A DNA stretch of 60,126 nucleotides, filler included, from Dirinaria sp. TL-2023a (Eukaryota), in the NCBI GenBank assembly GCA_051941275.1. It is 2 parts of 2 records of this genome, joined end to end, with 100 filler letters (N's around TTAATTAATTAA, not from the genome) between each part and the next. Parts side by side here need not be neighbours in the genome. Positions count along the whole stretch, not along the records: positions 30,133 to 60,126 come from JAVEBF010000106.1; 1 more part is not named here. The stretch is one strand, 5' to 3'. Every line of letters starts with the position of its first letter. Positions within the stretch are counted from its first letter, which is position 1. Of the stretch, positions 30,133 to 55,292 are shown in pieces. A program made the translations under genes and the position numbers. A model generated the notes under the pieces. It saw only the letters and a list, made by a program, of their open reading frames with translations. It did no database searches and was not told the DNA's origin.

Positions 30133-30231
30133 CCTTGACTTGGTTTAGTTAGTCTTTTGGCGCTGCCGGGACTTTTACCATTGGGAAACCTATCTAACCA
30201 AGGTTGGGTCTTTGACATATTTGACATTTAC

Positions 30232-35640: not shown

Positions 35641-35711
35641 GCCGTGGGTTCTGCTGCACGTACACACACATGCTGTGTCGCGCGACGTGTGTGTGTGTGT
35701 GCAGCCACGGC
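35641..35711. repeat. Imperfect hairpin with (CA)n/(TG)n arms
   Basis: GCCGTGG..GCTGCAC..ACACACACA pairs with TGTGTGTGT-GCAGC-CACGGC. Central perfect palindrome GTCGCGCGAC at 35677-35686. Confidence 0.7.
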
Positions 35712-36066
35712 TCCGAAAGCGTGTCGATTTCTGAATCGTGTCTGTTCATATTATGGAGAACATAAAAACTTCGACAGAGATAAAAATTTAACGTGAAAAG
35801 AAGCTCCTCTCATCTAACTACTTACATCAGTCCGCAGATAGATAAAGTCCGACTATTGATAAACGATAACATAAGTGTAACATAATGCCTTCCAAACGCA
35901 CTAATCTACAAGAAAACCAACTAGCCTTACCTAACACCGCATTCGAGCGTACTAATATACAGATATCATGACCAATCCAGCCTACCTTCACCCCATGCTC
36001 ACTGAGCTTCCATACTACTCCTAAGACTCTGCCCCCCTCCCCCCTTCACCTCCTCCCCAAGTCATT

Positions 36067-38205
36067 CTACCAAAGCTTCACATAGCTCAAGAATCGTCGC
36101 CAGCCGGGCTGTCGGTAATACTCATCCAATTGCTGGATATCTTCCGTGGTGAGCTTTCTCCGGCCCGTCAAACAATCAGCCGTCTCTGGGTTGCGCCAGG
36201 GGGTCCGGAATACGAGCTTGTAAGCAATGGTTAACGAGACGATTAAGATGATACCGATGGTGTACTGGAAAAAGTTTGACGCCGTGGTGCCGGACTTGCC
36301 CTATTCGTGTCCCTACGTCAGTTGATAAAACAAAGGAGATAATTGTTCAGCATTGGTCAAGACCGAGGAACCCGTAGTGAGCCGCAATAAGAGGTATGTG
36401 GTTCATAAGCATTCGGGACTCACCGGAGGCTTGGCGCCCACGTAGATGCAGGAAACCAAGAGAAGCGTGGATATAGTCATGAGCCATGCAGGCGCAAGAG
36501 GCCAATAACTAGACTTCCAAGCATACAGATTCGAAAACAGCTTGTCGTTTTGCGCCGCAAGAACCTTGTGGAAACGCCAAGAAGTGAACGCAACGATCAT
36601 CCAGTTGACAAAGAACGAGGCACTCGTAATCGAGACGAACCACGACAGTGCAGTCGTGCCACCGGCTGAAGCGCAGTGTCAGTGCTACCAAACTCCACAG
36701 GGTTTTGAGGCTGGCGAGAAGATATTGGGCTACTCACCAGACAAATTGATATATGTCAGAACAATCGCCGTGAAGCAAGTTACAAGCAGTGACCGTACCG
36801 GCCGTCCTCTACGATCGACCTGCGCGACCCATTGCGGAACAAGCTTTTGGTTGCCCATGGTCCTCAGAATCCTGGAAGCCAGATAGATCGATTCCGCGGA
36901 AATTGCGAGAATACCGCACATGATGCCGGCATTCAAGATGCTGGATACGTAGGGAATGCTGACCGACTGGATGGATAAGACGAAAGGGGAAGCCGTTACT
37001 CCGGAGCCGCCTAGTAATTGGTCGTTGTTCGAAGGGATGAGTACGGTAATGAAAATGACGCATGTCATGTAAACAAAGATCACTCGATAAGGAACGAGTT
37101 TGGTGGCATGGCCCATCGAAAAACGAGGGTTCTGAGCTTCTCCGCCCATGATTCCGATGAAGATCTGGTCGCCGACTGCCCAAGTCGCGAGTAGGGCTGA
37201 GTTCGCAAAGCCCTTGGAAAGGTCAGCTGCAGGTCGTCGAGCGCAAGTCGGGGCATATCTACGTACTGAAAATCCATTTTTAAAGGCTGGAAAGTCCCTC
37301 CAAGTCGATCCATCATGCACATAGCCCTTTGGCCCTGCGCCGCAAACAATAGCGAGAGAGAGGAGAATGATGAGCATAAAGATGATGATCTTAATCAAGG
37401 AGGTGAAATACTCGAACCACGCAAAAACCGTGTTGGGCATAGTGAACAGAGTACATGTTGTGACCAGAAATATAGTGACTTTTCCCATCGTCAGCATTTC
37501 TTTGACTTCAAGGAACGTCCGCTGGACGAGGAAGTGGCTGCAGGAGTCCAGCCAGACCTCCACCATCGATGCTCAGAACTCGCAAACTTACGAGAAGCAG
37601 CCTTAGGAAAATCTCCATTTGCCCAGAACTGGATGAGAATGTTGAAAAAGGCCGCTTCGGATGCAACTATAGAAGTCCAACCTTGATCAAAGTTAATTAC
37701 AAACCATGGATAGTACGGACGGGCTTCTTACCCAGCCATTCGGCAAAGCCAGCGCCAAATGCCAATGCGGGATCAACCCATCGGTCTGCATAGTCGATAT
37801 AGTTACCAGAGGTTGGAAAGGCAATGGTCATTTCGGAGAGAGACTGCAGAACAGCCCAGACGCATGTGCAGACCAGGAAGTAAGCAATGACCATGTTGCC
37901 TGGACCACCAGACGCTAATGCGGCACCAGTTCCAATAAACAGCCCTGAGCCTATGTTGGAACCAAGTGAGATAATCTGTCATTGACCCTGTCAGTAGGCA
38001 GTCGTACTTGGGAAAAGCGGCCTCATTCATCGCATACGTGGACTTGATGTGGGGTGAAGGAGCGATGGAACTGTCCATTCGTCGTGTCTACCATTTCGAT
38101 CACATCTCCTATGCTAGCACTTCTAATAGCGTTGAGATCGAGCTCCCCTTTCTCGCCATCTTTGGACACGCTGGTGTCGGAACCGGCGAACTGTTTCTCT
38201 GCCAT
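36067..38205 (-). CDS. Amino acid permease (APC superfamily, YAT family), multi-exon
   Basis: FHRSFTPHQVHIISLGSNIGSGLFIGTG...GGPG, LSEMTIAFPTSGNYIDYADRWVDPALAFGAG, GEAQNPR, ASPFV, VDRRGRP. Last exon ends RFLSYVKLW* at 36067. Confidence 0.92.
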
Positions 38206-39083
38206 GATAATGGTGATGATTTCTGAGGCAAGTAAAACTCGTTGATTGATAACGTATGTGAGGCTGGCCGAATAGATCAAAGCATGAGATTGAACTTTGG
38301 CTCAGGGAGCAACGTGGCAGTGGAGCAAGACGAGTAGGGACCACGGCACATGATAAATACGCGCGAGGTCGAGAGACAGTCGGTGCCGGTGATAAGGTAG
38401 TAAGGTATCGAACAGGCCCATGCCGCCATTCAAATCTTGACGAGCCCAGATAGCGGCGAAGATCAATGGCAACCGGAGTCACTGGTTGGTCCATCGCGCG
38501 GATGTTCTCCAAATTCTCGAAGAACAACTTCGGAGATCGGCGTCAAAGATACTAATCCGTGCGGGACTAGTAGTATCCCCCCCCCCTTCTTGGCAATATG
38601 GACAAATCAAAATGTCACGGCTTGCATAGATCATGGGCCAGATCGTGCATAGAATGACCTCAGAAATGCCAATTTTTACTGCAGTAACGATCTGCCGATT
38701 TGACGGTTTTACCGGGACTAGTCAGGGGTCTTCTCGCTTGTTGTTCTATATGTCTTCGACGAGAGATTGTGGAGATAGAGCATATGTAATGCTAGCACTG
38801 ATAAGAAGCTATAGCAGAACGTCCAAAAGCACGGACAAAAAGCGTGACAGACAGAAAGCTTGCCACGAGAGTTCGTACGATTGTCCGTTCAGAGCCTTGT
38901 GACCAGACAGTCACGTGGTGTACAAGTAGTGGCTGTCTTGATTGTGGCCATCGGTTACGCTGAATTAGCAATGATTGCTCACTGGTCCTCGGGTCAAATC
39001 GATGTTCGCCAAAAGACGAGGGAACACAGCGTGCCTTCCGAAGCAAAACCTCGTACTTGCCTTCCCAATGACTTGACTAGTGC

Positions 39084-39151
39084 CGGTTACATTGCCGACA
39101 CCCCGCACCGGAACACGACCAGACGGTCTATGGGTTTCGGCAAGCGTCCCG
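39084..39151. promoter_or_regulatory. Two CGG-N8-CCG putative Zn2Cys6 sites in the permease/P5CDH divergent promoter
   Basis: CGGttacattgCCG at 39084-39097 and CGGcaagcgtcCCG at 39138-39151. Confidence 0.65.
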
Positions 39152-39324
39152 AGGCTCAACCGATCCATATTCCGAATCAAAGTCTGCCACGCGTTGTAGA
39201 GTTTTCTCTCTCATAATGCTCCTCTGATAGCGCGTCAAGATGCTGCTCTCCGCCGATTTTCTTCAGCAGATAAAACCAAAGCACACACTCCGCCGACGTA
39301 CAGCCAGTGTGGAAGGAGGAAGGC

Positions 39325-41129
39325 ATGAAACCGTTCACTGGCCTTTACGCGTCTGCGATTCCGCGCAACGTCCATGTTCAGTCGCCAGTTCGCAACTTCA
39401 GAGCACTTGATGTCCCACGGCGTAGAATTGCAACGGGCGGGCACTTTGTAGTGCCAAAACCATTCAATGAGCCGAATGTAAGCATTCGTCTAGCAAAAAT
39501 GAGTACGGATCGCTTATTCGTATCCAGTTTGATTATGTGAAGGATTCACCGGAGCGACTGAAACTGGTCACGGCACTGAAGGATCTGAGGTCAAGATTAC
39601 CTGTGCAGGTTCCAGCCAGGGGTGGAGTTCCCAAGTCAGAGAAACAGGACAATGCACAGACCGTCTCCATGTCAATGCCTTCCGAACACGGCAGCACTTT
39701 CGCTCAGTACGGCGACGCCTCAGAGAGCGACGTTTCAGCCGCCATTGAATCCGCACTGAGCGCCAGGTCAGCATGGCAGGACATGCCCTTTACCGACCGC
39801 GCCGCCATCTTCCTCCGAGCCGCCGAGTTGGTCTCCGGCAAGTATCGCTACGAGCTCATGGCAGCGACGATGCTTGGTCAGGGCAAAAACGCATGGCAGG
39901 CTGAGATCGATGCCGCGGCGGAGCTGGCGGACTTCTTCCGCTTCAACGTCGGTTTCGCCCAAGAGATCTACGATAAGCAGCCTGCCATCAACTCTCCAGG
40001 GCACCACGGTCGAACCGACTGGCGGCCACTGGAAGGGTTTGTGTACGCAGTCTCGCCCTTCAATTTCACGGCGATCGGTGGCAACCTGATATCTGCTCCT
40101 GCACTGATGGGCAACGTGGTCGTGTGGAAACCATCGGCCATGTCCGTCTATCCCAGTTACTTGGTGCATAAGATCCTGCTCGAGGCCGGGCTTCCGCCAG
40201 GCGTTATTCAGCTGGTCAATGGCGATCCCGAGCTTGTCACGAGGAAGGTGTTTGAGCACAGGGAATTCTCGGCTCTCAACTTCATCGGATCCTCCGACGT
40301 ATTTCGATCACTCTTCGGGAAAATAGCCGAAGGCGTTGTCAGCAAAAAGTATCGCGACTTCCCCAGAATGGTGGGTGAGACGTCCGGGAAGAACTTCCAC
40401 TTGGTTCATCCCTCTGCCGATATCGGAAACGCGGCAAGACATACCATTCGCGCTTCCTTCGAGTACTCAGGGCAGAAATGCTCCGCTTGCTCGAGAATAT
40501 ACATCCCACAGAGTCAGGCGACTGCTTTCCTTGAGGCCATGAAGCATGAACTCCGTGCTGTCAAGGTCGGCCCCCCCGAAGACTTTGAGAACTTTCTTGG
40601 ACCGGTCATCAACCGTGCAGCTTTCGATAAGATCACCAAGGCAATCGACTCTGCCAACCAAGACAAACAACTTGAGAGGGTGATTGGGGGCACATATGAC
40701 GGGAGCAAAGGCCATTTCATCGACCCTACCATTTACGTCTCCAAAACACCCAACCACGAGCTATTTGACCGAGAACTCTTTGGGCCCGTACTCGTAGCAC
40801 ATGTTTATGCCGACACCGAGTTCGACAATGTCCTAGAAGTCATCGACAGGCAAGGGGGTAACTTCGCTCTCACGGGAGCGATATTTGCCAACGACCAGAT
40901 CGCCATCCGCAAGGCCGAGAATCGACTTCGCTGGGCCGCCGGCAACTTTTATGTCAATTGCAAGACAACAGGGGCTGTTATCGGGCAGCAATCCTTCGGG
41001 GGTTCTCGGGCAAGCGGCACCAATGATAAAGCTGGTAGCGTCAATTTGTTGATGCGTTTTACGGCACCAAGGACTTTGAAGGAGGAATACAACAAATTGG
41101 ACGATGTCATGTATCCTAGCAATCTTTGA
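39325..41129 (+). CDS. PUT2: Delta-1-pyrroline-5-carboxylate dehydrogenase (ALDH4 / Put2 / PrnC family)
   Basis: Arg/Ser-rich presequence-like exon 1, intron about 39478-39527. Motifs NEP, ATMLGQGKNAWQAEIDAAAE, RPLEGFVYAVSPFNFTAIG, GETSGKNFH, FEYSGQKCSA and QQSFGGSRASGTNDK. May be a paralogue of the housekeeping gene. Confidence 0.95.
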
Positions 41130-42146
41130 GCGAATATCATCCGTGGTGCTCGGAGAAAAGTAGCCGTCAGTGAGTGGTTTATACAGAAATACCGAGAATA
41201 CCCAGTCATATCTGCTTTAGGAGAAATTGCTTTATCTTAGACCAGGGGGATATAACAAACACTATCGTACTTGTCTATGTTCGGCGTGGTACTTCGAGAC
41301 GTAGCTGACGAAGCTCAGATGCCTTCCCCTTTTTTTTTGTGTCTATTATTGTGAAAGATGAATTGCAGCGTCAAGCGTGCAATGGCTGTGACATGTCGAG
41401 AAAATGCATCGCTGCAAAGCGATTGCAAATTGAAAGCTCATTGCTTCAAGAAGTCGGACTGAATGATTGACCGAATGTTGCTACTAAAGTATTCGTGCAT
41501 CTCTAAACATCAACCTTGACGAGTATTCTAAACCCCCCCGGATCATCTTCGAGCGCTTGAGAAACGATCGCTATGAGACAATGTCCTACGTGGATCAAGA
41601 CGAAGGACCGAGTCGTGCTAATGCCGAATCTTGAATCGGCGCGCCTTCCAGTTCAAGGAGCAACACACAACCGCAAAGACTCGTAAGGAGACCCCGTAGA
41701 AACTTCACCGTCAACGCTGCGATCCAGGAGGGAAGGAACTCGGAAAAGACGAGGCCACTCGGACTTCGAAGCAAGGAGGAGCTTTCAAGCCTGACGTGAT
41801 GCAAAGTCTGTGTCCAAGCAGATTGTCAAGTACCGCCGTCCTATTCTTCGTAGCCAACGAGCACATCTCAGCTCAAAGCATTCACCTTTGTAGAAGATAT
41901 TTCTCGAATGCATTTGCAGCACACAATTTACAGTAGTCATACCTTATACAAGGCTGAGCAGTTATGACTTAGGACTGATGGCCGCGCGCTAAGCCGCTAA
42001 TAGAATTCATCTTGTCCCGAGGTTATGCCGGAAACGCGACCAGCACGTATCTTACGTAAGATTACCCGATCAGGTGACATCAACACAGACACAAAGTCCT
42101 TCCAGATGTATCTTACCTTAGCTAAGGCAGGCGAGGACTCCTTAGC

Positions 42147-42163
42147 TTTCGGCAAGCTTCCCG
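42147..42163. promoter_or_regulatory. CGG-N8-CCG site upstream of P5C reductase
   Basis: TTTCGGCAAGCTTCCCG, 16/17 identical to TTTCGGCAAGCGTCCCG at 39135-39151. Confidence 0.7.
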
Positions 42164-42302
42164 GTGATACATACAGTACCTTAAGGTAGTAGTGGTGGCG
42201 GTCTCAATTTCGAATTCGTCTCAATAATAATAATGAGCAGGAACTTGTCCATACCCAACTACAGCCTCCTCGTGTTGGCAGCATAAATCAGTCTTTGGTC
42301 AG

Positions 42303-43222
42303 ATGGAGTGTCCGTGGCAGAAAATTCATATCGCTGTCCTGGGATGCGGTGAAGATCCTGTGCAAATCGACATAGGCAAGGCGCTGATGTTGGCCCAGGT
42401 TTCATGGGAACCGCCATCCTGAAGGGACTTTTGACGAAGACCAAAAACGGTAGTACACCCTCGGTCGAATACACAGCTTGGGTTCGGTCTCGAACATCAT
42501 TAGAGCGACTTCACAACGCGCTGGACGACGATCGAAATCAGGTCAACTGTGTGGGTGGGGGAGATGTCGTGGAGAGTATCAGGCCGGCAGATATCGTTAT
42601 CCTCGGCGTTCCTCCGGGAGAACTCAATGATGTCTTCGGAACTGTAGGATTGGCTGATGCGCTGCGGGGGAAAGTCATCGTTAGCCTCCTAGCAGGTGTT
42701 TCCTACCAACAGTTGGCGACCGTCTTGCAAGCCGACACGAAGGTCGATTCAGATTATCACGTGTTGCGGGTCATCCCAAGCATCGGGGCGAAGATCAACG
42801 ATTCGGTGACGCTGATCGCAGAGACGGTAAATGCAGGTCAGGAGCAACAGAAGGTTGTGACTTGGATGTTTGAGCAATTGGGCCAACTGCACTGGCTCCC
42901 TGAGTCACTCATGGACACGGCAACTGCTGCCGGGGCAGCATGTAATGCGCTGACCATGGTAGCTGTCGACGCCATAGTCGATGCCAGCGTTGCTGAAGGA
43001 ATGCCACGTTGGGCAGCTATGAAGCTGGCTGCCGCCTCCTTGCGCAGCTCCTCAGGGCTACTGCTGACCGGCGGCATGTCACCAGAATCTCTAAAGGAGT
43101 CTATGTCCGTGCCTAAGGGTATAACCATCAATTCGGTGCTGGAGCTTGAGCGGGGACATGCGCGATCGACTATTTCCGACGCTGTCCGGCACGCTATACA
43201 GTACGCTAGAAAGATGGCCTAA
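42303..43222 (+). CDS. Pyrroline-5-carboxylate reductase-like protein (divergent ProC/Pro3 family)
   Basis: Exon 1 MECPWQKIHIAVLGC spliced to GFMGTAIL gives the Rossmann GxGxxG. Also ADIVILGVPP, VSLLAGV, ESLMDTATA, DASVAEGMPR and PESLKESMSVPKGIT. Confidence 0.88.
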
Positions 43223-43682
43223 GTACCTTATCACTGATATATGAGCTTATACGGTTTGAATACTCCTGACACTTCTGTTATGTATGTTGACGTATTCCCG
43301 CAGCATGGATCGAGATACAGATATGATTTAGACACCGAGTAAGGTTCCCCAAAGCTTACATATTCGCTACTCTTGTCTAGCCGGAGATCATTAGACTACC
43401 CCGCAAGCCTACGATCGAGATGATAAGCCGCCCTCCACCACGGCAGAGCTGGAAAGCTATGCGTAACGGGAATGGCAGCTCTTCATAACTATCTTTGAAG
43501 CGACTCCGTCATTGATCACCCATATTTCCGACAACTGCAAACGGATGAGATTATCTGAGTGCTCATCATGTTGCCTTGCGAGGTGGCCAATAAATATAAT
43601 TGGAAGGTCTCAAAGATAGCCTGTTCGCGTCAGAGATGTCGGAAAATCGCTTCAGCGCTGAGTTCAAGCCTGTAGTAGTATT

Positions 43683-43696
43683 CGGCTTCCTTTCCG
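43683..43696. promoter_or_regulatory. CGG-N8-CCG site upstream of proline dehydrogenase
   Basis: tCGGcttcctttCCGa. Confidence 0.6.
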
Positions 43697-44089
43697 ACAC
43701 ATCTAAGCCGTCATTGGTATTAGCCCTAATACCATGAGAGAGCCAGACGTTTGGGTTAGAAAGCCTTCACGGTAATGAGAATGCCTCAGAATTGGGTTGC
43801 CCGAAAGTCCACAACCATCTTCCTTATCCAAACAATCCATCCCCTTTCTGGGTTACGGGGCTGAGGCCGTAATGCGGGGCTGGATGACCAGCTACCCCTT
43901 TTGACGCAATACAGTGCTGGAACCATCGCCGAGCGCTGTACTGCACCGCTAGCAGCTGTAGGCACGTGTGGCTGTTGCAGCTTCCAGCTAAAAGCTTGCA
44001 TTGAAAACTTCGATGATAAAGTATCATGCTCGGTTGGCAGCTACCCTCGAGTGAATATCTCATATGATATATCGAGCCTTCCCGAACCC

Positions 44090-45641
44090 ATGAAGCATCT
44101 CGTTGCTAAACATTCTCTTGCGACCTCAATGCCTGTCACTCCGCCGGCAAGGTGCCCCCAGTATCTGCAATCCCGCTTTTCATTTCATCTCGCACATTCT
44201 CCTACGAGGTGGCATTCTACGTTTGCAAGAGACTCCTCCAATGATGCATCGTTGACAAAAAAGAGATTTGCAGTCTTTCCAGACCGCTCCGAGTTGAGGG
44301 CAGCAGAGCCTCTAGCATTGGCTCGTCTTCCTACGGCAAGCGTCTTTAGAAGCTTGTTACTCGGTGCTTTCTTTTCGTCATCCCTCCTGTTCACTCCCGG
44401 ATTTGCGTTTTTGAAGAAGATCTCCAACTCCCCCTCGCGCATGCTGAACCCGGACAAGAACCCGATTTTGAGAGCTATCGTCAAGCCACTGGTGTATGAT
44501 CAATTTTGCGCTGGGCGAAACCGGTCGGAAATCCAAGAGAAGATTTCGCAAATTAAGTCTCTGGGCTTTTCGGGGGTCATTCTTTGCTACGGTAAGGAGA
44601 TCCAGATTCAGAAGTACTATCAGCCCGAAGTAGATTGGCTCAGCGAGTCGCACCAAGGCTTTGATCAGGGGCTAGATTTATGGAAACAAGGTAACCTGGA
44701 AACGCTGGATATGATCGGTGATGGGGACTACTTAGGTATCAAGTACGATGCTCCAACGTTCTCTCGAAGGGACCTCACTGATCTCTGTGAGCAGATATAC
44801 TGGAGCCGGGAAGTCAATAACAGATGACCTTCTACGCGGCAACGCTCCACCCAGGGCCTTCGTGGATGCTATGGACGCCATCTTACAGAGAGCGATGGCC
44901 CAGAACTGTAGGATCTGGATCGACGCCGAACAGCAAGTGCTTCAGCATTCCATCGATCGCTGGACGATCGATCTCATGCGCAAGTACAACCGAAGTGGGA
45001 AAGTCGTACTATACAACACTCTCCAGGCCTACCTGAAATCGTCGCGAAAAAAGCTTGAGCAGCAGCTTCAACTCGCTCACGAAGAAGGCTGGACACTGGC
45101 GATCAAGCTTGTTCGGGGAGCCTACATCGAGAACGATGTTCGAGAACGCATACACGACACCAAAGCACAGACGGACGAGTGCTACAACAGCATCGTGCAG
45201 GACCTCCTCAGTGGCAATGTGAAAGGCATTGCGGAGCAAGATTTCCCCAAGATGCAGCTGTTCCTCGCTGGCCACAATCCGATCAGCATCTCGAAGGCAA
45301 GTGATCTGGTACGTGAACTTCAATTGCAGGGCAAGTTGAAAACGCTGCCTGAGTTCGGTCAGCTTCAGGGGATGGCGGATCAGCTTGGCTGCGAATTGTT
45401 GCAACATGGTGAAGACACAGCACGGGTCTTTGCGTCGAAGGGGCTCCCGGTCGCGATCCCGCGAGTGTACAAGTGTTTGACTTGGGGAAGCATACAAGAA
45501 TGCATGCAGTATCTCGTGAGAAGGGCTGTGGAGAACCGTGGCGGCACAGGTGCGATCAAGGATGGTATGCCTGCACTCGCAAGGGAGTTGAGACGAAGAA
45601 CGATCGACGCGTTAATGGGACGGCGCCGAACGTTGGGCTGA
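44090..45641 (+). CDS. PUT1: Proline dehydrogenase family flavoenzyme (Put1/PrnD-like; possible hydroxyproline dehydrogenase)
   Basis: YDQFCAG, GVILCYGKE, IKYTGAG (across an intron at about 44743-44794), IWIDAEQ, NTLQAYLK, KLVRGAY, AGHN, FGQLQGMAD, VYKCLTWG and YLVRRAVEN. The N-terminus resembles a mitochondrial presequence. Confidence 0.93.
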
Positions 45642-45886
45642 TTACTGTTACTACTCTGGCGATCAGGGGGGACTACAATATAGCGCGCTGCAGGACTGCT
45701 TATTTCTTTACACATACTTCGAACCTCCAGATCTACTGCTTGCTCTGTTTTTCCGTTTCGAGGATAATTTACGCACCCGTCCTCTGCGAGGAATCAGCTA
45801 GGCAGGGCTGAGTGCGAGAACACAGAGCATTGGAAATCTCAATCGAGCAAAGTTTTCCTCATCCGCTCCGACATCAGAAGCGGTCT

Positions 45887-45932
45887 CGGGAAGGTCGCCG
45901 AGCCCTCCCTTGAACTATCGGTTGTGCCTCCG
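45887..45932. promoter_or_regulatory. Two CGG-N8-CCG sites upstream of the aldolase
   Basis: tCGGgaaggtcgCCGa at 45887-45900 and tCGGttgtgcctCCGa at 45919-45932. Confidence 0.7.
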
Positions 45933-46065
45933 AGAGGACATCTCTGAAGGCACTGACTAAAGACTGACTAATCCATGCTCTCAGAGACCATTTTACTTCT
46001 ATCGTCATCAAACCTCCGAAGGCAATTTAGAGAACACGGATCAGCGGACGAAATCTGCATTCGCG

Positions 46066-47088
46066 ATGGTCTCAGAGATCGAATCCAACGACAATGCTTC
46101 TGCGAAGCCACAGAAACACAACTACCCAGTCCCAGAGCCAGGCTGTTACGTCCCCGCCGTCACCTTCTTCGACCCAGAAACAGATCAGCTAGAACTCGCA
46201 TCACAGAAAAAATACTACGCGTACCTCGCCAGCACAGGCCTCAAAGGCCTAGTAATCCTAGGCACCAACGCGGAAACCTTCCTCTTAAATCGAGAAGAGC
46301 GCAAAACGCTGCTAGAAGCCGCCCGGCAGGCCGTGCCAACGGGATATCCCATCATAGCGGGTGTAAGCGGGCACTCGACCTCTCAAGCACTGGAATACAT
46401 CTCGGACGCGTACTCCGCAGGCGCCAACTACGTGCTCCTCCTCCCCTGCGCCTACTTCGGGAAACAAACCACGCCCTCAGTCGTAAAGCGGTTCTACGCC
46501 CAAGTAGCAACCCAATCCCCCCTCCCAATCATAATCTACAACTTCCCGGCCGTGTGCAACGGGCTCGATCTCGACTCGGGGATAATCACGGAACTGGCGA
46601 CGCAGCATCCGAACATCGTCGGCGTGAAACTCACCTGCGGGTCCGTGGCCAAGGTCGCGCGGCTGGCGGCCGTGTTTTCGCCCGCGCGCTTCGCTGTCTT
46701 CGGCGGCCAGGCCGATTTCTTGCTCGGCGCCCTCGCGGTCGGTGGGGGCGGCTGCATCGCTGCGTTCGCTAATGTGTTCCCTAATGCCGTGGCGAGAGTG
46801 TTTGAGCTCTGGAGTGAAGGTAGACAGCAAGAGGCGCTTGCGCTGCAGAGGGTTCTTTCCTTGGCGGAAGCGCCGACTAAGGCTGGCATTGCGAGTACTA
46901 AGTATGCGGCTGCTTTGATGACGGCGCCGAGGGCGGGAATTGGGGATGCGGCGCGGTTGCTGAGGCCACGCAGGCCGTATGAGGAGCCGGATGAGGGGGC
47001 GAAGGCGAAGATCGAAGAGACTATGGCTCCGTTGAAGGGGCTTGAGGATGGTGGACTTGCGAAAGGAGAGGTTGTGAATGGTCACTAA
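46066..47088 (+). CDS. DapA/NanA-family class I aldolase (4-hydroxy-2-oxoglutarate aldolase / GaaC-like), intronless
   Basis: GCYVPAVTFF, GLVILGTNAE, EER, PIIAGVSGHST, IIIYNFP (catalytic Tyr) and NIVGVKLTCG (Schiff-base Lys). Confidence 0.92.
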   Translation: MVSEIESNDNASAKPQKHNYPVPEPGCYVPAVTFFDPETDQLELASQKKYYAYLASTGLKGLVILGTNAETFLLNREERKTLLEAARQAVPTGYPIIAGVSGHSTSQALEYISDAYSAGANYVLLLPCAYFGKQTTPSVVKRFYAQVATQSPLPIIIYNFPAVCNGLDLDSGIITELATQHPNIVGVKLTCGSVAKVARLAAVFSPARFAVFGGQADFLLGALAVGGGGCIAAFANVFPNAVARVFELWSEGRQQEALALQRVLSLAEAPTKAGIASTKYAAALMTAPRAGIGDAARLLRPRRPYEEPDEGAKAKIEETMAPLKGLEDGGLAKGEVVNGH

Positions 47089-48517
47089 CTTCGCATATCG
47101 AAAGCATATTTTGAGGGAAATGGGGGATAGATGGTCTTTTTTTTTTTTTTAATAGATCTGATTGGGATCAGATCTTGAACATATATTGAGCAATGACGTG
47201 ATACTCGAGGCCGCCGTAAAAGAAACGTCTCTTGACAAGAGCAAATCCAGCTTTACCTCGAAATTTCTCACTGAATAGTTCAGATCTAAGAGTCTAACAC
47301 GTCTTTCCTTCCTATTTAAGTATTGTAGATTGCGCACAGCATGTGTATATCACACAAAGAAAACATAGCATTTTATAATTAATATATCTAACTCAATCCA
47401 ATCATGCACTCGAAATAAAACTTATCGTCTCCCTTTCGCAAGGTCTTTTTTTGTACCGACTTCTACAGACGGACGATTCTAAACCGCGATTAGAGTGTCA
47501 ATGAGCTGGATATGAATCGAGTCTTGCGTGAATGGTGAAAGTTAACTAAGATGAAAATATGAAGTCGATTTTTGGATCAGTATGATACGAGCTGGGCTGG
47601 CGTGATGTTCGCGATAAATGGGTTGTAGACTCTTGGGGTAGCTGGTAGGGGATATGTTGGCTCGTGGGCATGTGTGTTGCGAGATGTTGGGGTGTTGAAA
47701 TTTTTTGATTTGCTATGTACGCAGTCATCAGGTAAACTTTTTTTTTTGTCTTTTTTTTCTTTTTGGAGAATCTTACTGCAGTTATACTACCCTTGTCAGT
47801 GCCAACAATTCATTTTCATCTATTGAACTAGGTAACCCAATTGGAGTCGCATATCGATCTATTCTTCATACTTCTATGTGTGTGTTTGGTTATTTACATG
47901 GCAACCTTTATGTGCGGAGGTCTATACCCCGATTGGGCCTAGCGCCCTCTCTGCCGGGTATGCCCTATGCCGCTCACTTTCCAACATCATCTATCAATAT
48001 CTTCTGATCTTTGTCTGCCTCAGAATTAAATGGATTCGTTTCTTCCTAGCGAAAGAAAGAAGTTCAAGCCAATAACGCCCTGACGAAAGGACGATGAACT
48101 AAATATTTATTAAAAGTCTCACTGTCAAATTAATAATCCGTTGAGTGATTGAAAGACGCTAGAAAAGAAATATGACTGCAGTCTTGATTCTGAAGCATTG
48201 ATTTGAGGAAGAAGACATTGATAGACGATAGTAGATTTTGGTGAACTGCGCATGAAGAGGAGGGAAGAATTTTGAAATGTCAAGTTTTCGCAACACATGC
48301 ACACGCCAAATTCTAGCCCGCTGGCAGTGTAGCATATGCGCATACTTCCGATCCATATTTTTCGAGTGAAACCGCCTTGCGAGTCGCAAGCCATCACATC
48401 AATCTTACACAATGCGGGATGAGAAGAGTCGGTATTTCCTCGAGCAGGTCGCGACGGCTCTATGAACAGAACAGGAATAAAAGAGCTTTGACATAGAGCA
48501 GTCATTCGACGGTAGGC

Positions 48518-49490
48518 TCAGGTGTTCTGGTCGATACTTGCAGTGCGTGCTCGGTCGAAGTCGTTCATCATATTTGCTCTCATTTTATGGTTGACCGTAG
48601 CCCCTAACCCGAACGCCGGAAGGACCCTGCACATCCTCGCAAGACTTGTGGCTGGCCAGTCCAGCCGCACTTTCCTCAGACGGTCCCTGGCCGGTGTAGG
48701 GCTGTTTCGGTTGTACAAATCCAAGCCAAGCAAATGTAGCGGCGTATTCAGAATCTGGATCAGGGCAGGAGTGGCAAACTGGGCCACCGAACGGCGGCTG
48801 AAATGATCTTCCACGGACTGTGGGAGCATTGACGCCACTTTTGGTGGCAGGTTAAACGACGCGAAAATGGTGAGCGAGTCGCGTAGCGCTAGCAATGCGT
48901 AGCTGGCTGGCGGGAGAGGGCGAGGGGCGATCGTTCCGAACATTTTGGTGAACTGGCTGTCCTTGTACAAAGCCAGATTCAAATTGACGAAACTGATCGC
49001 GCCGAATTTGGCGAGGCCACTGGTCGTTGTGCTTGCCGGCTGATTCTGCGCAGTGGAGCTCATCGTGTCTATGGCGTTCGCAGTAAGATATGTGCTGCTG
49101 TAGAGTAGCATCATGATAGCCGACGGACGAGCAAAGAGGAAATGGTGTGGGCGGAGAAGCAGACTTTGAAGCGAGCTTTTTACTGAGCCCATGAATGAAG
49201 TGCGACCGGAGACTCTTTCAACGACTGCCCTTTAGCATGAATCAGTAAGATTTTTCCGCCTCATATCCTTTCTCGTGAGTCGTGACGGATTGCTCTCAAT
49301 AGAAAGCATACTTATCTATCACTGTGACAATGGGTGCCACCAGGCCGGCTGCTATGGCTGCGCTGCTGGCATCTATCGTCAATCTAGCTCCAACATCTCC
49401 CAAGTACCAACAGCTATCTCGTTCTTTCCCTCTTGTCACATGGCTCGCATACTCAGGAACTTGTATCGAGTTGCCGGAGTCTGCCGCCAT
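48518..49490 (-). CDS. Uncharacterised fungal membrane protein, 2 exons (possible mitochondrial transporter-like)
   Basis: Exon 1 ...DASSAAIAAGLVAPIVTVIDK splices in frame (GT-AG) to AVVERVSG...YSSTYLTANAID...YKDSQF...RDSLTIFASFNLP...TPLHLLGLDLYNR...ARMCRVLPAFGLG. Several amphipathic/hydrophobic helices. Confidence 0.8.
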
Positions 49491-49761
49491 AGAAAGCGTC
49501 AACGTCTTGTTTCCAACGCCTCAATCAAGTGCCATAAAGGAATTGTTTTGGTTCGAACGGCCAAGCATACAACTTCGACGTCGTGACTCGCTTGCTAGGC
49601 GATACAAAGTTGCTCAATGGCCGAGACATGTCTGTCCTCGATAGTTCGGACACTGCCGCAGTACGTTGCCGCGTGGTGCGAGGCTGCGTCAAGAGAAAAG
49701 TTCGAATCTGAAAGGAGAGAAGACCAGTCCCGATACCTTAGGCTTGCAGTGTTGGTGCTTT

Positions 49762-49916
49762 CGGATGAAATCCCGATGCATCCGATAGCCCGATAATCAT
49801 ACAGTGATTGGAGCCGGCGGACGATCCGACGTCGGATTTCCCGCCGTCCGACTATGATTCGGACCGACCAAACCCTATTTCAACCCTAAATACCAATTCC
49901 CCCGGAACTTCTGCCG
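49762..49916. promoter_or_regulatory. Four CGG-N8-CCG sites in the divergent promoter of the membrane protein and the FAD oxidase
   Basis: Sites at 49762-49775, 49815-49828, 49833-49846 and 49903-49916. Confidence 0.7.
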
Positions 49917-50245
49917 AGCCTTATCGCCGCTGACTGCCGACCTGCATCCCGATGAATCTTCTTTCTCACCAACTTTTCGTATCAAAGTTCGTAGTCGAGT
50001 CGGGGTGCAATATTATCCTGTCATGTGCGTGAATCTAGCTCCTTTGCACACGGGAGTCGCCGCCGGTCGTTGCGCGGTGAGCAATGCGAAGAAAGCTAAG
50101 CTCCCACAAGCTTTGCCAGTAGGTGAAGATGAAGGCAAATTCGATCCGAGTTCTGCGTGACAGCGCGTAAGACCTAAGCTTTTTTCCACTCTAGTATACT
50201 TCATATAGATCGGCATTGAGCACTGGAAGACGTCAATTCATCAAG

Positions 50246-51748
50246 ATGGCCCGTAATGATTCTCCTGTGCTCATTCTTGGTGGCGGCGCTTGGGGCCTAT
50301 CCACCGCTTTACACATGCTCAATGCAGGCTACAATGATATTAGGGTCGTTGAGCGTGCTGAACAAATACCTTCGAGATACTCTGGTGCCTGGGATCTCAA
50401 CAAGATCGTTCGCGCTGAATACGAGGATCCCTTTTACACAGAATTAGCTCTGGTAAGGTCACTGTTGGCAGTTTTGGTGGAATGGCGCCCGAAGAGGTCT
50501 TTACTTCAGCTCTCCTGTTCATGTGTCAGAGAAAAGTCTCCAATTCAGAAGTTTCATGGACCCACCACTGACGGCATGCTTGAGCGAGAATAGGACGCCA
50601 TGGAAGGCTGGAAGACTCCTCTCTTCGGGCCGTATTTTCATCAGACCGGCTACGTGGTCGCTGTAACCGACAGGGCTCCTGAAAAGGCAGTCCATCACCT
50701 AGAGGAAGCTCTTTCCTCGATATCCTCGCATCCCAGGTTCGCTTCTGAAATCAGACGGCTGCACGGCGGCAAAGACTTCAAGGACTATACGTGGCAGTAT
50801 AGCGGGCCCTTGACCGGGTTCAAAGGGTACATCAATCGAATTGCAGGCTATGCGCATTCTGCAGATACGCTTAGGGGTATCTGGGAGCATTGTGCAAGCA
50901 GGGGCGTGAGGTTTATCATGGGGGAGTCAGCTGGCAAGGCTGTCGAGCTTCTCTATGCTGACGCGAAAGTCTTGGCTTCGTCTTCTACCGGCACGGGCCC
51001 TCAGAGAAGCACTGGGGAAGGTCGATGCATTGGTGTCAAGACAGCCGATGGCAAGCGTCACTTGGCGGATTTGACGATTTGCGCTTTGGGCGCCTATGCT
51101 GCCTCACTGATTCCAAGCCTAGGGAATTTTAGTGTGGCGCGATGTTGGTCTGTAGCACACGTGCAGCTGACTCAGGCAGAGACAAATTTCCTCCGTGGCA
51201 TCCCTACAACCAGCGTTCGAGACCTAGGATTCTTCTTTGAGCCAGATCCCAAAACCCAGCTGTTCAAGTTATGTCCACTTGGCGCCGGATTCACCAACAC
51301 CAACAATGATGGCATATCTTTGCCGCCTGGGGATCTCCTCCCACCTCCGCAAGATTACATTCCCCTTGAGGACGAGCAAAAGCTTAGGCAGCTATTGCGC
51401 GAGACGTTTCCGTGGATGGCCGAAAGACCCTTCGTGGAACAGAAGCTCTGTTGGTTCGCAGACACAGCAGACTCGGAATACTGCATCGATTTTGTTCCGA
51501 ACACGAACAACTCGCTTGTCGTGCTTTCTGGCGACTCGGGGCATGGCTTCAAGATGATGCCGAGCTTTGGAAAGTGGGTGGTGGAACTATTGAAAAATAA
51601 CGAGCAAAGGCTGCCGAGATGGCAATGGCGCAATACAGATCTAAGGGGGCAAGACTGGAGCACGTCTGTCAGTTGGAGGATCGGAGAGTCGCGCGAGATC
51701 CGTGACATGATTGATGAAAAGTCGAAAATCATCAAAGCCAGACTGTGA
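50246..51748 (+). CDS. FAD-dependent amine oxidase, sarcosine / L-pipecolate / fructosyl-amino-acid oxidase family, with PTS1
   Basis: VLILGGGAWGLSTA, DLNKIVRAEY, intron 50453-50593, FHQTGY, GFFFEP, KLCWFADT (covalent-FAD Cys region), SGDSGHGFK; C-terminal -ARL. Confidence 0.92.
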
Positions 51749-52375
51749 TTTTGAGGGGAAAAGTGGACTTAAAATGACCAGTGGTCGCTAAATCCTTTGA
51801 TAAGCCTTCTCTTACGTGAATTGATGTTCGGTATCAATTCTAATAGAAAAGTACTGATAGTCATCGTGGCTTTTCTTGAAGGAGTGTTGAGTGGTATCGT
51901 CCGCGTTATATCTAACGGAGTCCGTTTTAGACCACGCTCCAAACTGTGCTTCCCCGAGCCTTCTTGTCATTCTTCACCAAGAAGCCGGCTAGCCAAGGGA
52001 CACGGGTGTGTGTAAATAAACTTGGTTCTCCCAAGCAATATGAGCAGCATCACCACAGACAGTCTATCCCTCATTTTCATTGATGACAGACTTTCTTTGC
52101 GGTAAGTCGAGAACCATAGTTGATCAGGGGGATCAGTTCTTGCTGGCCTCGAGGATGGATGTAGAACTGTAACGTTTAATCCTCACCTGCAACGGCTTTC
52201 GGAACCATAATTACGTACTCCGGCATTTCGTATCCTCACTCGCCAGAGACATTTCTCAGAAGCGTCGGGAAAGACTGCTGGGCCATTCCCTACATGTAAT
52301 TGAAAATCCTGTAGAAGTTGTCGTTTTACCTCCTAAAAAGCTTCGCTCGCGGCGTCTTTACCATCATTCACTTAT

Positions 52376-52432
52376 CTTAGGTAAATACTTAGGTAAGAAC
52401 TTAGGTAAGAGCTTAGGTAATTACTTAGGTAA
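52376..52432. repeat. 12-bp period tandem repeat, 5 x CTTAGGTAA(N3), in the regulator promoter
   Basis: CTTAGGTAA starts at 52376, 52388, 52400, 52412 and 52424. Confidence 0.85.
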
Positions 52433-52670
52433 TGAGTATCGGCCGGAAATCTGCCAAAGCGCTAACCCTAAAAGGATGCGATGCGGGGGTTCCATCGGCC
52501 TTTAATCGATGCGATCCATCACTATCTTTCGTATCATACATTACTTCTCATACTGGCTGCAGCCGAAAACGACTCTCAGACTAGTATACACGTCCAAAAG
52601 GGTCGAGTAATGGCTCAAATCTCCCGTATGTCGGCAGTGCAGTAGAAAACTGAACCCTATCAGACGCCGC

Positions 52671-55292
52671 ATGGACAACCTGGGCTCGCAGCAGGACCGA
52701 ATCAGGAAGCGGGCATCCAACGCGTACGCAGGCAGATCCTGTATGCCCGTGCCATTATTACTCACATTACTCATCTGCTTGTTCGTCTAGTTGCAGCCGT
52801 TGCCGCCAACAGAAGATCAAATGCTCTGGCGCCGCGCCATGTGGATCGTGTATCAAAAAGAACTTGCCTTGCAATTTCGACAACGAGCATCAAAAGGTCC
52901 TCGTCACAAAAGGGTGAGTAAGCAGACTCTTGAAGCTATGCATTGACGAAATACTGTTCTAAACCCCGCCGTGAAGATTCCTTGATTCTCTCGAAAGACA
53001 AGCCGGGGTCTCCCACCATAATAATAATAGTAGCCGCGGCTCTAGACAAGACCGCATTGACCCCGCGCTCTCTACAGACGAGAATCCAGACCCTTACGTA
53101 CAAGGAGGCAAGTTTTCAAAAGATCCGAAATTGCAATTCCCACTGACCATCTGAAAGAGTTTGATGTCGGACAGCCTCATAGACTACCGACACCCGCGAA
53201 TGGATTGGGCTCTAATGAATACGCACACTCAGACTCCGAGATTGATTCTCGTAGAGAAAGCACTGCAATAGACGAAGATCTCACGAATCCCTTGGTATCC
53301 GGGAAATCCGTTTATGTAGCCGACAGTACGGGCCAGCCAAGTGAGTCCTGCTGTGATCAGTTACTGCAGATGCCATCAGGGCCTGACAAAAAGCCTTGTA
53401 CAGCTTACCTTGGGACATCTTCGAATTGGTCTTTTGGCAGGCGGATACTGAGTAATGCCCATGAGCGGCTGTACGGCGTTCCGCTGCCCGCAGCGAGCCA
53501 TCTCTTCCAGGGACCAGCGTACGAGCTTGGTTGGGATGGCCGACGAGGCACAGCGGAGCTCGACGACGCCATCCTGCCGACTGCAGATTTTGCTTTGTTT
53601 CTGATAAATGCGGTGAAATTTCATTGCGGCCAACTGTTCCATTTGTTCGACGAACAGGAATTCATGCGCAATTTCAGCACTTACCACGATCAAGGACATA
53701 GAGACAACTGTTCGGAGCTATGGCACATCCACTACCTTCTAATCCTTGCCCTGGGCAAAGCTTTCATTGTTCGAGTGGGCCAAAACCGTCGACCGCCAGG
53801 CGCCAATCTATTTGTTCAAGCGATGCGATTACTTCCAGACACCACCTACCTTTGCAACGACCCGATTCCATCAATTGAGATACTGTGCTGCGCAGCGCTC
53901 TATTTCCAGTGCTCAGATATGCGTGATCCCGCGTATAGTCTTGTGAGCTCTGTGATCGCTGGCACCATGACTCGCTGATCGCTCACTTCTGCGGCAGATT
54001 GGACAAGCCTTACGAATGGCGGTAGTGCATGGCATGCACACGGACATTCAAAGTCGTCATCATTCGGATTCTGTGACTGAGAGGTGCCGCGAGATCTGGT
54101 GGACCGTTTATTTGCTGGACTGTCATCTGTCGTCGTTGATGGGCGTGCCGCTCGCCCTGGCGGAACAGGACATTAGTGCGCAGCTTCCATCCTTTGCCGG
54201 TTTCTCATCAAAATCTCTGGCTTTGTCAATCCATGTCAGGCTTGCAAAGACTATGACGATGATACTTCGAAGTAAGTCCTGGATTCCCTGTTGCTTCTAG
54301 CGTGATATTCTGACGATACCCGATCCAAGCCGTCTACGGTGAAGAGGGTCGTACGAATAATAAATTTTTAGCCAGCATCAAAAACGCGCTAAAATCCCTG
54401 GCGAGCATTAATGATGAGCGAAACAGCGGTTTCCCTCTAAGCCTGAAGAACCCCTCAAGTAGTATTTCGAGGCTCTCGGCCTATCTCCACTTGTTCCACC
54501 ATCAAGTTCGTGATTCACTGCGATTGCGTTCATCTCGAGCCTGACGCACTAATGTGGGCCCTGTAGTGTATCATCCTCACCGTCAGACCCTTGTTGTATG
54601 CACTGTGGCAAAAGAAGACCGAGACCTCAGCTCCCATGCGCGTTAGCTCAGCAGGAAGTGTGCGATCCCTATTACGAGTTTGCGTCGCTTCGGCACACGA
54701 AACATTGAAAATCCTCGATGCCCTCCAAGCTCAAAGCCTTCTTGGTAAGTATCAGTGAATTAGGGCTGCATGTATTCTTGCATAAGCCTTTCTGGTTCCC
54801 TTTCGTTAACTTCCATGGTCAGAAAGCTTCATACCTTTTGATCTCGACTCTACATGGTTCTGCGCGGTGGTGCTTCTGGTCACCAAGATGGTCGACGATA
54901 CTCTGCTGCGGAAACATGGGTCGTGGCTGCAAAAAACACATGCGATCCTGGATGAAATGGTGTCTAGGGGTAATCTGGTTGCAAGACTTCGCAAAGCAGA
55001 GCTGGAAAAGCTCGAGGAGACATTGACAAGACTGCACACCACTGGTACCACTTCAATCATTACCCATAGCTCGGTCATGCAGACCTTCGACCAAGACCCC
55101 GCGAGCGAAGAGAGCGTTCGGGATGTCGGTTCCAGTCATTCTCAAATGCAGTATGAACCCTTGCACGATTGGAACTCTGAGGAAGGCTTGAGCGGGGATC
55201 AACTGATCGCTGTCGCGGACTCCTTGGACTTTGCCAGCTTGGACTGGATGTCGGCTGCTCCCCTGGGTCAGCTGGACGGCTGTTTGTATTAA
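52671..55292 (+). CDS. Zn(II)2Cys6 transcription factor, Put3/PrnA-like, multi-exon
   Basis: RKRASNA|CSRCRQQKIKCSGAAPCGSCIKKNLPC binuclear cluster. Middle region YLGTSSNWSF, LPTADFALFLINAVKFHCGQLFHLFDE, RRPPG, IGQALRMA..GMHT, ERCREIWWTVYLLD..LSSLMGVP and FIPFDL. Some exon boundaries are uncertain. Confidence 0.92.

Follow-up and report, generated by a model that had tools for sequence, protein, structure and literature searches.

An eight-gene cluster in a 60,126-nucleotide stretch of DNA from Dirinaria sp. TL-2023a, called the window below, may encode a co-regulated pathway for the catabolism of 4-hydroxyproline, and probably of related ring imino acids, by what is essentially the animal route. 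We hold this reading tentatively and weigh it against several others. The cluster comprises genes for an amino-acid permease, a delta-1-pyrroline-5-carboxylate (P5C) dehydrogenase (P5CDH), a protein resembling P5C reductases (P5CR), a flavoenzyme of the proline dehydrogenase (PRODH) family, an enzyme of the DapA family, an orphan membrane protein, an FAD oxidase and a Zn2Cys6 transcription factor (Table 1). A PRODH of a separate clade (clade A), P5CDH and a HOGA1-like aldolase make up its conserved core, which corresponds to the hydroxyproline route of animals, and one promoter motif is found beside all seven structural genes.

The window consists of two records joined by 100 N, and positions 30,133-60,126 come from JAVEBF010000106.1. 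The first-pass annotation, made from the sequence alone, had placed eight genes of these families between 36067 and 55292. Pfam searches bore this out for seven of the eight, the membrane protein being the exception, and both end points are stop codons (that of the permease at 36067-36069, that of the regulator at 55290-55292). The window is of eukaryotic, fungal character, and in the predicted models the introns are short and of the GT-AG type. Searches were run on single exons, so that the N-terminal parts of some proteins went unscored. The nearest database proteins come from lichen-forming ascomycetes; one of them (P0101), whose source is named as a lichen-fungus metagenome-assembled genome, is identical to the window aldolase.

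A shared promoter motif

The first-pass annotation had mentioned a shared promoter motif and not spelled it out. One such motif was found, the inverted site CGG-N8-CCG, most copies of which read TCGG-N8-CCGA. We counted CGG-Nx-CCG for x = 0 to 15, together with three other orientations. The N8 site occurs 21 times in the whole window, against 8.95 +/- 2.61 expected, a number reached by none of 100 shuffles. Eleven of these sites fall in the five intergenic regions (4338 bp) that flank the seven structural genes, where 2000 dinucleotide-preserving shuffles gave 0.75 +/- 0.86 sites and never more than four. The same regions hold 0-3 sites of any other spacing and 0-2 of the other three orientations. 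Every one of them has at least one N8 site: there are two in the divergent promoter of the permease and P5CDH genes, one at 153 bp upstream of the ATG of the P5CR-like gene, two upstream of the PRODH gene, two upstream of the DapA-family gene, and four in the divergent promoter of the membrane-protein and oxidase genes. The upstream region of the regulator gene itself has none. The 41 kb outside the cluster contain only five sites, and the site was not enriched in 13 other PRODH loci. A further five sit within coding exons of cluster genes (40316, 44451, 45448, 46701 and 50803).

The presence of the motif beside all seven structural genes argues for putting the oxidase, reductase-like and membrane-protein genes in one unit with those of PRODH, P5CDH and the aldolase. 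The pattern is the one expected of a pathway-specific Zn2Cys6 activator, and the Zn2Cys6 factor encoded at the end of the cluster is presumed to be its pathway regulator. Two gene models from Chaetothyriales join PRODH to an orthologue of this factor (38-49% identity). The earlier description of the factor as Put3/PrnA-like is weak: Put3 is the best PDB match of the zinc cluster, but at a weak E of 1.9e-5, against 7e-5 for Leu3, and the N8 spacing differs from the sites CGG-N10-CCG of Put3 and CCGG-N-CCGG of PrnA.

A paralogous proline dehydrogenase

The PRODH tree has 124 rows. It leaves out seven A. fumigatus sequences that were nearly identical, one short sequence, loci beyond L037, and loci with a match of less than 240 residues or with stops. 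The ascomycete sequences split into a clade A of 40 rows (SH-like approximate likelihood ratio test, SH-aLRT, 91) and a clade B of 76 rows. The window PRODH falls in clade A, with those of lichen fungi, Chaetothyriales and Dothideomycetes and with the P5CR-linked PRODH genes of Aspergillus (A. fumigatus), Purpureocillium and Talaromyces. Clade B contains most Sordariomycetes and Leotiomycetes, including most single-copy genes of the former, plus the P5CDH-linked locus L017; the other P5CDH-linked locus, L020, is 37% identical to the window PRODH and absent from the tree. Since several orders (Xylariales, Hypocreales and Ophiostomatales), and likewise the Leotiomycetes, are represented in both clades, the two clades are paralogues. 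In A. fumigatus one proline oxidase gene stands beside P5CDH (Afu6g08760/50) and a second beside P5C reductase (Afu3g02300/10) (PMC2526178). Going by L017 and by this annotation, we take clade B to be the canonical prnD/PUT1 type, to which the window PRODH, as a member of clade A, does not belong. The claim that the cluster is not simply a classical prn cluster gains from this placement.

Clades A and B sit together opposite the non-ascomycete rows, on which the tree was rooted by choice, so that it does not test their placement relative to animal PRODH2. With the root chosen by hand, clade A looks like an independent fungal duplicate and not an orthologue of PRODH2. The N-terminus of the window protein is basic (9 R/K and 2 D/E in 60 residues), and its second exon gave no PDB sequence match at 1e-5. 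The clade-A PRODH is a candidate hydroxyproline dehydrogenase.

This paralogy bears on the view that the locus is an ordinary prn/PUT proline cluster with a prnX-like extra gene, in which reductase, aldolase and oxidase are passengers of loose or unrelated role. We rate it as distinctly unlikely. With the A. nidulans prn cluster (prnA, prnX, prnD, prnB, prnC) and the yeast PUT genes, the window shares a permease, a PRODH, a P5CDH, a Zn2Cys6 activator and one orphan gene, and it has four of the five prn functions. It would also share structural genes presumably induced through activator sites in divergent promoters, to go by the extract of PMC5983819, which describes prnX as a gene without characterised function that belongs to the prn cluster and is induced by proline. 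That Put3 is the top PDB match of the zinc cluster speaks in the same sense. However, the window uses the other PRODH paralogue, outside the clade with the P5CDH-linked L017, and differs in its three extra enzymes and its N8 site spacing. Each supposed passenger gene adjoins a motif-bearing region, and in other lineages each adjoins a clade-A PRODH. In the same extract prnX has about 40 kDa, whereas the membrane protein has about 295 residues, and none of the 120 homologues listed for the latter is named PrnX.

A HOGA1-like candidate aldolase

The DapA-family protein has as its top PDB match 3qfe, a Coccidioides protein with no assigned function (E 2e-124); of 308 aligned residues, roughly two in three are identical by eye. 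Among characterised structures, HOGA1 is the best match of the single sequence (9e-30), followed by YagE (1e-27) and L-KDA dehydratase (1.6e-18), and a profile of 17 orthologues gave 128.5 bits for HOGA1, 118 for YagE and 111.6 for the best DHDPS. The NCBIfam dapA model scored 112.7 bits, below its cut-off of 206. According to the extract of PMC3188589, the catalytic residues of HOGA1 are Lys196, Tyr168 and Ser77, and Asn78 and Ser198 are specific to it. The window protein keeps the equivalents of Lys196, Tyr168, Tyr140, Asn78 and Gly222, with Thr in place of Ser77 and Ser198. The Asn78 equivalent is invariant in all 17 aligned fungal orthologues, and E. coli YagE has Gly there. With HOGA1 as best characterised match and most of these residues kept, the first-pass description of the enzyme as HOGA1-like stands, and we regard it as a candidate 4-hydroxy-2-oxoglutarate aldolase, the label that automatic pipelines give to its orthologues. 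No relative turned up when the aldolase alignment was run against bacterial and archaeal genomes.

The aldolase N-terminus is acidic and not of the mitochondrial type; those of PRODH and P5CDH are basic. A strict C-terminal tripeptide of the type 1 peroxisomal targeting signal (PTS1; SRL, ARL, SKL or similar) ends 40 of 120 DapA orthologues (P0101-P0220), and none of 100 PRODH or 120 membrane-family proteins. Eight more of the 120 aldolase orthologues end in HKL. The window aldolase and several lichen copies end without PTS1. The presence of the signal in a third of the orthologues indicates that the compartment seems to vary among lineages, and the tagged aldolases, if their C-termini are a guide, would place glyoxylate release in the peroxisomes of many fungi.

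Conservation of the neighbourhood

Evidence on the neighbourhood came from gene models in which adjacent genes are wrongly fused, from locus tags and contigs of the same size, and from 80 metagenome PRODH loci, 43 of them at least 8 kb long. Gene models fuse PRODH to DapA in Flavoplaca (75% identity), to the P5CR-like protein in Caloplaca, A. fumigatus/A. lentulus, Purpureocillium and Talaromyces, and to the oxidase (57-72% identity) in the black yeast Fonsecaea erecta. The locus tags of PRODH and DapA are consecutive in Gallowayella (Q9223_002356/57) and Bathelium (M1821_008344/45). For further gene pairs we took equal contig size to mean the same contig. By this token PRODH, aldolase and membrane protein occur together on contigs of 14556 and 54332; PRODH and aldolase on those of 12410, 28604 and 37951 (the last being the Bathelium pair); aldolase and membrane protein on another seven, from relatives (19191, 14081, 16170, 15975, 7916, 7608 and 15128); and PRODH and membrane protein on one further contig, with the window's own contig (29994 bp) counted apart. 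The membrane protein shares a contig size with PRODH and/or DapA hits on 12 contigs from relatives.

Among the metagenome loci, L038 (2.35 kb) holds the 3' end of a PRODH gene (58% identity), then a DapA gene (66%), then the C-terminus of a convergent P5CDH gene, whose last 24 residues include 19 identical to the window's. Here again the trio of enzymes dedicated to the animal route lies together, in a gene order other than that of the window. The P5CR-like protein, oxidase and permease had no match at E<=1e-3 in any of the 80 loci. Another locus, L059, has PRODH beside a DapA-family gene and was dropped as support, since the contig is bacterial and the protein genuinely DapA-like (272 bits to DHDPS).

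Co-conservation with PRODH and P5CDH, a check that the first-pass annotation had named for both the aldolase and the oxidase, holds unevenly: the aldolase accompanies PRODH in several lineages, and PRODH plus P5CDH on L038, but the oxidase was found beside PRODH in one black yeast only. The full eight-gene set is so far confined to the window and, probably, its close relatives. That it was seen in the window alone, and that several clade-A PRODH loci lack partners, would suit mere chance neighbours with no common pathway. We consider this extremely improbable, given the enrichment of the motif, its specificity for a single spacing and orientation, and the recurrence of the adjacencies in different orders and lineages.

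The other enzymes and the permease

By its sequence, the aldehyde dehydrogenase of the cluster is a genuine P5CDH. Its score on the NCBIfam model TIGR01236 exceeds the curated cut-off (705.5 against 613.6 bits), in the PDB it matches Put2 of yeast at E 5e-167 and ALDH4A1 of humans at 4e-142, and it fails the models of alpha-ketoglutarate-semialdehyde dehydrogenase (NF042993; 160.7 bits, cut-off 770) and of delta-1-piperideine-6-carboxylate (P6C) dehydrogenase (155 bits, cut-off 730). Its N-terminus is basic and poor in acidic residues (8 R/K and 2 D/E in 51 residues). The P5CR-like protein is more divergent: its second exon, which lacks the first 16 residues, scores 161.8 bits on the NCBIfam proC model, below the cut-off of 196.75, and its substrate loop reads VPKGIT and AGAACNAL where human PYCR1 has SPGGAT and SGSGPAY. 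The oxidase has the DAO fold and was placed in the fructosyl amine/sarcosine oxidase branch, where its nearest similarity lies: residues 2-365 of its second exon match fungal fructosyl amine oxidases (Amadoriase) in the PDB at E 6e-40, and monomeric sarcosine oxidase only at 1e-5. An Atlas look-up returned 'FAD oxidoreductase' only. The protein ends in ...IIKARL, of which we take -ARL to be a PTS1. The permease starts MAEKQF... and, by its family, is presumed to take up the pathway substrate; in PrnB, proline specificity is tied to five residue positions, as the extract of PMC5983819 has it. To cast the oxidase as an entry enzyme for N-substituted substrates, as first proposed, or to assign a role to the P5CR-like protein, would be to guess from sequence.

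These enzymes would all find employment in a bacterial-type or mixed imino-acid route. A peroxisomal oxidase would then act on the alpha carbon of hydroxyproline, or of D-proline/D-hydroxyproline, and so produce pyrroline-4-hydroxy-2-carboxylate or pyrroline-2-carboxylate; the DapA protein would be a deaminase/dehydratase yielding alpha-ketoglutarate semialdehyde, to be oxidised by the aldehyde dehydrogenase; and the P5CR-like protein would reduce pyrroline-2-carboxylate to L-proline, burnt in turn by PRODH and P5CDH. This is the layout of the Pseudomonas and Sinorhizobium hyp genes, and bacterial clusters of the kind have an epimerase, an FAD D-hydroxyproline dehydrogenase, a DapA-family pyrroline-4-hydroxy-2-carboxylate deaminase, a semialdehyde dehydrogenase and a pyrroline-2-carboxylate reductase. 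The bacterial hydroxyproline/D-proline clusters, in so far as the extract of PMC5144071 describes them, resemble the window in their DAO flavoenzyme, DapA enzyme, aldehyde dehydrogenase, imine reductase, transporter and regulator. Such a route uses all five enzymes, oxidase and reductase included, which the motif joins to the same regulon; the altered loop and sub-threshold proC score of the P5CR-like protein are as expected for a different imine; and the -ARL end of the oxidase, with PTS1 in 40 of 120 DapA orthologues, makes successive action in peroxisomes possible. Other observations speak against it. No epimerase of the Pro_racemase family was found among the window open reading frames (ORFs) scanned with Pfam, the rest of the genome lying outside that scan. 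The aldehyde dehydrogenase is of the P5CDH type and falls far below the semialdehyde dehydrogenase cut-off, and the reductase belongs to the P5CR family. The oxidase is nearest to fructosyl amine oxidases, which act on derivatives of L-amino acids at a bond away from the carboxylate, and not to D-amino-acid dehydrogenases. The DapA-family dehydratases rank below HOGA1, as the L-KDA dehydratase score illustrates, and the most conserved neighbours (PRODH, DapA and P5CDH) do not form one chain in this scheme. The bacterial-type route accounts for the oxidase, the DapA protein and the reductase about equally well, and as a whole we judge it unlikely, though far from negligible.

The oxidase also raises the prospect that the substrate is a secondary amine of a different kind. 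Pipecolate, saccharopine, N-methyl(hydroxy)proline, proline betaines and fructosyl- or opine-type amino acids come into question; the oxidase would act on it first, as the key enzyme, leaving the proline enzymes to process the product that it releases. Its nearest solved relatives are fructosyl amine oxidases, and its -ARL end suits a peroxisomal, H2O2-producing oxidase. In fungi, the fructosyl-amine-oxidase family extends to oxidases of pipecolate and of saccharopine, and P6C can serve as a substrate of P5C reductases. We find such substrates improbable all the same, because the oxidase was seen beside a clade-A PRODH in only one other lineage (Fonsecaea erecta), because the aldehyde dehydrogenase is of the P5CDH type and falls well short of the P6C dehydrogenase model, and because the aldolase would be left without a role.

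An orphan membrane protein with a predicted carrier-like fold

The membrane protein has about 295-300 residues and an N-terminus unlike a presequence. It matches no Pfam family even at E<=1, Mito_carr included, and scans of 12 homologues found no Pfam family besides those of fused neighbours. Its own family is real, with 942 representative clusters at E<=1e-3; sources label the members 'Sequence orphan', and the Atlas look-up gave 'orphan family' only. In one public gene model, P0335, a family member is joined to a clade-B-like PRODH. Another (P0345) fuses a member to an amidase; family members thus also adjoin other nitrogen-catabolic genes.

AlphaFold 2 models were made of the large window exon and of a full-length lichen homologue (P0378, 75% identical), with predicted local distance difference test (pLDDT) scores of 93.5 and 87.2. 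The P0378 annotation seems to read through the intron that we place at 49310-49231, and residues 47-70 of its model are a low-confidence insert. Both models were compared with 48,161 PDB representatives by VIA-align. The full-length model matched UCP1 at Z 13.9 (root-mean-square deviation 4.9, 236 residues), where the caution level for helical bundles is about 13, then a chain of the Tetrahymena respiratory supercomplex at Z 10.7 and the bovine ADP/ATP carrier at Z 8.9 (218 residues); the next unrelated row stands at Z 7.2. UCP1 and the ADP/ATP carrier are in the top four rows for both models, and the other two rows are chains of Tetrahymena respiratory complexes, which on our own reading are carrier-like, although the entry title does not say so. 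Foldseek found no PDB match at E<=0.001, so that the carrier likeness comes from VIA-align only. Sequence identity to carriers is 8-12%, and the carrier signature motif is not recognisable.

In sum, the protein resembles SLC25 carriers in its modelled six-helix bundle, its length of about 300 residues and its lack of a presequence-like N-terminus, and differs from them in having neither a Mito_carr match nor a significant Foldseek match. These models suggest a diverged protein of the mitochondrial-carrier fold and a candidate imino-acid importer. A study of C. albicans calls mitochondrial proline transport 'a major outstanding question' (10.1101/2023.01.17.524449), and a 2025 preprint implicates the sideroflexin SFXN1 in this transport, in human cells only (PMC12236812). 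A bolder proposal, which draws on the shared regulon with a mitochondrial PRODH and P5CDH and on the fusion to a canonical-type PRODH in another taxon, is that the membrane protein is the missing mitochondrial proline/hydroxyproline importer and the founder of a large, strongly diverged, Ascomycota-wide carrier-fold family, and that, with a PTS1-bearing 4-hydroxy-2-oxoglutarate aldolase, the route is split between mitochondria and peroxisomes and feeds the glyoxylate cycle. Taken as a whole, we regard this as speculative and rather unlikely.

Gene models and flanking regions

Table 1. Predicted genes of the cluster and the promoter sites among them, in window positions
Feature	Position	Strand	Gene model and support
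Amino-acid permease (YAT/AA_permease family)	36067..38205	-	Pfam AA_permease E 7e-38 on the largest exon; several introns
P5CDH, ALDH4 type	39325..41129	+	Exon 1 39325-39477, exon 2 39528-41129; Pfam Aldedh 6e-94
P5C-reductase-like NAD(P)H imine reductase, divergent	42303..43222	+	Short exon 1, exon 2 from about 42399; Pfam P5CR_dimer 3e-21 and F420_oxidored
PRODH-family flavoenzyme, clade A	44090..45641	+	Exon 1 to about 44742, exon 2 from about 44795; Pfam Pro_dh 2e-48
DapA/DHDPS-family Schiff-base enzyme, HOGA1-like	46066..47088	+	Single exon; Pfam DHDPS 5e-38
Orphan membrane protein	48518..49490	-	Exon 1 49490-49311, exon 2 about 49230-48518; no Pfam family
FAD oxidase, DAO family	50246..51748	+	Exon 1 50246-50452, exon 2 50594-51748; Pfam DAO on both
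Zn2Cys6 transcription factor	52671..55292	+	Pfam Zn_clus 6e-10, Fungal_trans 4e-10; several introns
Eleven intergenic CGG-N8-CCG sites, presumed regulator binding sites	39084..49916	.	At 39084, 39138, 42150, 43683, 43856, 45887, 45919, 49762, 49815, 49833 and 49903; shuffle test

To the left of the cluster lie the housekeeping genes Dcp2 and Rad5, followed by about 6.7 kb free of recognisable domains. In this interval between Rad5 and the permease (29400-36066), none of 54 ORFs of at least 55 residues has a Pfam match, the longest measuring 234 residues; it could hold lineage-specific genes or degenerate sequence. The 88 ORFs of at least 55 residues that adjoin the cluster likewise have no Pfam match. 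Directly 3' of the regulator, on the minus strand, a gene for an MBOAT_2-family membrane acyltransferase (55433-56866) has no CGG-N8-CCG site nearby and is probably outside the regulon. Farther away, ORF pieces with AMP-binding_C (7358-7969, -), Cyclase (8959-9510, -) and Amidase (12501-12968, +) domains are grouped at 7358-13000 and may be another small metabolic cluster.

Discussion

The analysis establishes the gene families, the enrichment of the motif, the paralogy of PRODH, the HOGA1-like residues and the conserved neighbourhoods. We infer which substrate is used, in what order and in which compartments the steps take place, and what the oxidase, the P5CR-like protein and the membrane protein do; hydroxyproline is a putative substrate or inducer. 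In the route that we propose, the YAT permease would import the imino acid, and the orphan carrier-fold protein would carry it, or a pathway intermediate, over the inner mitochondrial membrane. The clade-A PRODH would convert hydroxyproline to 3-hydroxy-P5C and P5CDH would oxidise this to 4-hydroxyglutamate. A housekeeping aminotransferase, or possibly the cluster oxidase, would yield 4-hydroxy-2-oxoglutarate; in animals the transamination step is performed by a housekeeping enzyme. The HOGA1-like DapA enzyme would then release pyruvate and glyoxylate, and in many relatives it would do so in peroxisomes, next to the glyoxylate cycle. The Zn2Cys6 factor would activate all seven structural genes through the TCGG-N8-CCGA sites.

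Compared with the mammalian route (PRODH2/HYPDH, ALDH4A1, aspartate aminotransferase and HOGA1), the window has in common a separate PRODH, an ALDH4-type P5CDH and a HOGA1-like DapA enzyme. Unlike the dispersed animal genes, those of the window are clustered under a common motif, and they add an oxidase, a reductase, a carrier-like protein, a permease and a regulator. The fungal aldolase also lacks a mitochondrial-type N-terminus, with PTS1 in a third of its orthologues.

The animal-type reading, which was that of the first-pass annotation, is supported in part, by the gene families, the HOGA1-like aldolase, its co-location with PRODH and the paralogy of PRODH, but the only expression data found, from a distant A. 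fumigatus pair, show no induction by hydroxyproline. Several observations weigh against it. In A. fumigatus, Afu3g02300 and Afu3g02310 had log2 ratios of 0.41 and 0.32 after 5 h on hydroxyproline relative to yeast extract-peptone-dextrose medium (YPD), that is, they were not induced, and both were induced in mouse lung (log2 5.8 and 1.1) (PMC2526178). The YPD comparator is rich in peptone, and the pair is a distant homologue with no aldolase beside it, which we equate, without a sequence check, with the fused clade-A models P0024-P0032. The oxidase and reductase carry the motif, yet they are superfluous to the animal route, and Pfam found no aminotransferase among the window ORFs scanned. The lead of HOGA1 over YagE is only about 10 bits, so that similarity does not fix the substrate of the aldolase, and the window copy has neither PTS1 nor a mitochondrial-type N-terminus, unlike the mitochondrial HOGA1. 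Other loci are less complete: the clade-A loci L001 and L004 (46-51% identity) have no partner gene within 10 kb upstream, and L001 has none within 10 kb downstream either (L004 holds about 0.5 kb there); the regulator is the sole partner beside PRODH in L005 and L029; Caloplaca has a DUF7029/DUF7223 gene upstream of its P5CR-like gene, where the window has P5CDH; the membrane family is found in none of the 80 metagenome PRODH loci (E<=1e-3); and CGG-N8-CCG is absent from the PRODH-DapA spacer of L038.

The A. fumigatus unit is among the arrangements nearest to the cluster: a clade-A PRODH (about 49% identity) adjoins a P5CR-like gene (27-30%), as in the window, in a two-gene unit with no aldolase, oxidase, P5CDH or regulator nearby. 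In C. albicans, Put3-dependent induction is specific to proline and is not triggered by hydroxyprolines (10.1101/2023.01.17.524449). The first-pass annotation knew of no characterised fungal cluster of this kind; our search of open-access full text agrees, having found no paper on such a cluster or on fungal breakdown of hydroxyproline. Individually, the parts of the cluster are of known kinds. What appears to be new is that they are clustered and have the CGG-N8-CCG site in common, that the PRODH belongs to a clade of its own in which a P5CR-like neighbour recurs, and that an orphan with a modelled carrier fold is among them.

The cluster offers a testable set of genes, including a PRODH paralogue, an aldolase with a solved orthologue (3qfe) and a regulator with a predicted site, and it nominates a candidate mitochondrial proline/hydroxyproline transporter. 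Hydroxyproline is abundant in collagen and in the cell-wall glycoproteins of plants and green algae, and a route split between mitochondria and peroxisomes, if true, would be of use to fungi that live on algal or plant walls rich in hydroxyproline. The cluster may also be relevant to how lichen fungi and rock-inhabiting black fungi obtain nitrogen and carbon from the algal partner.

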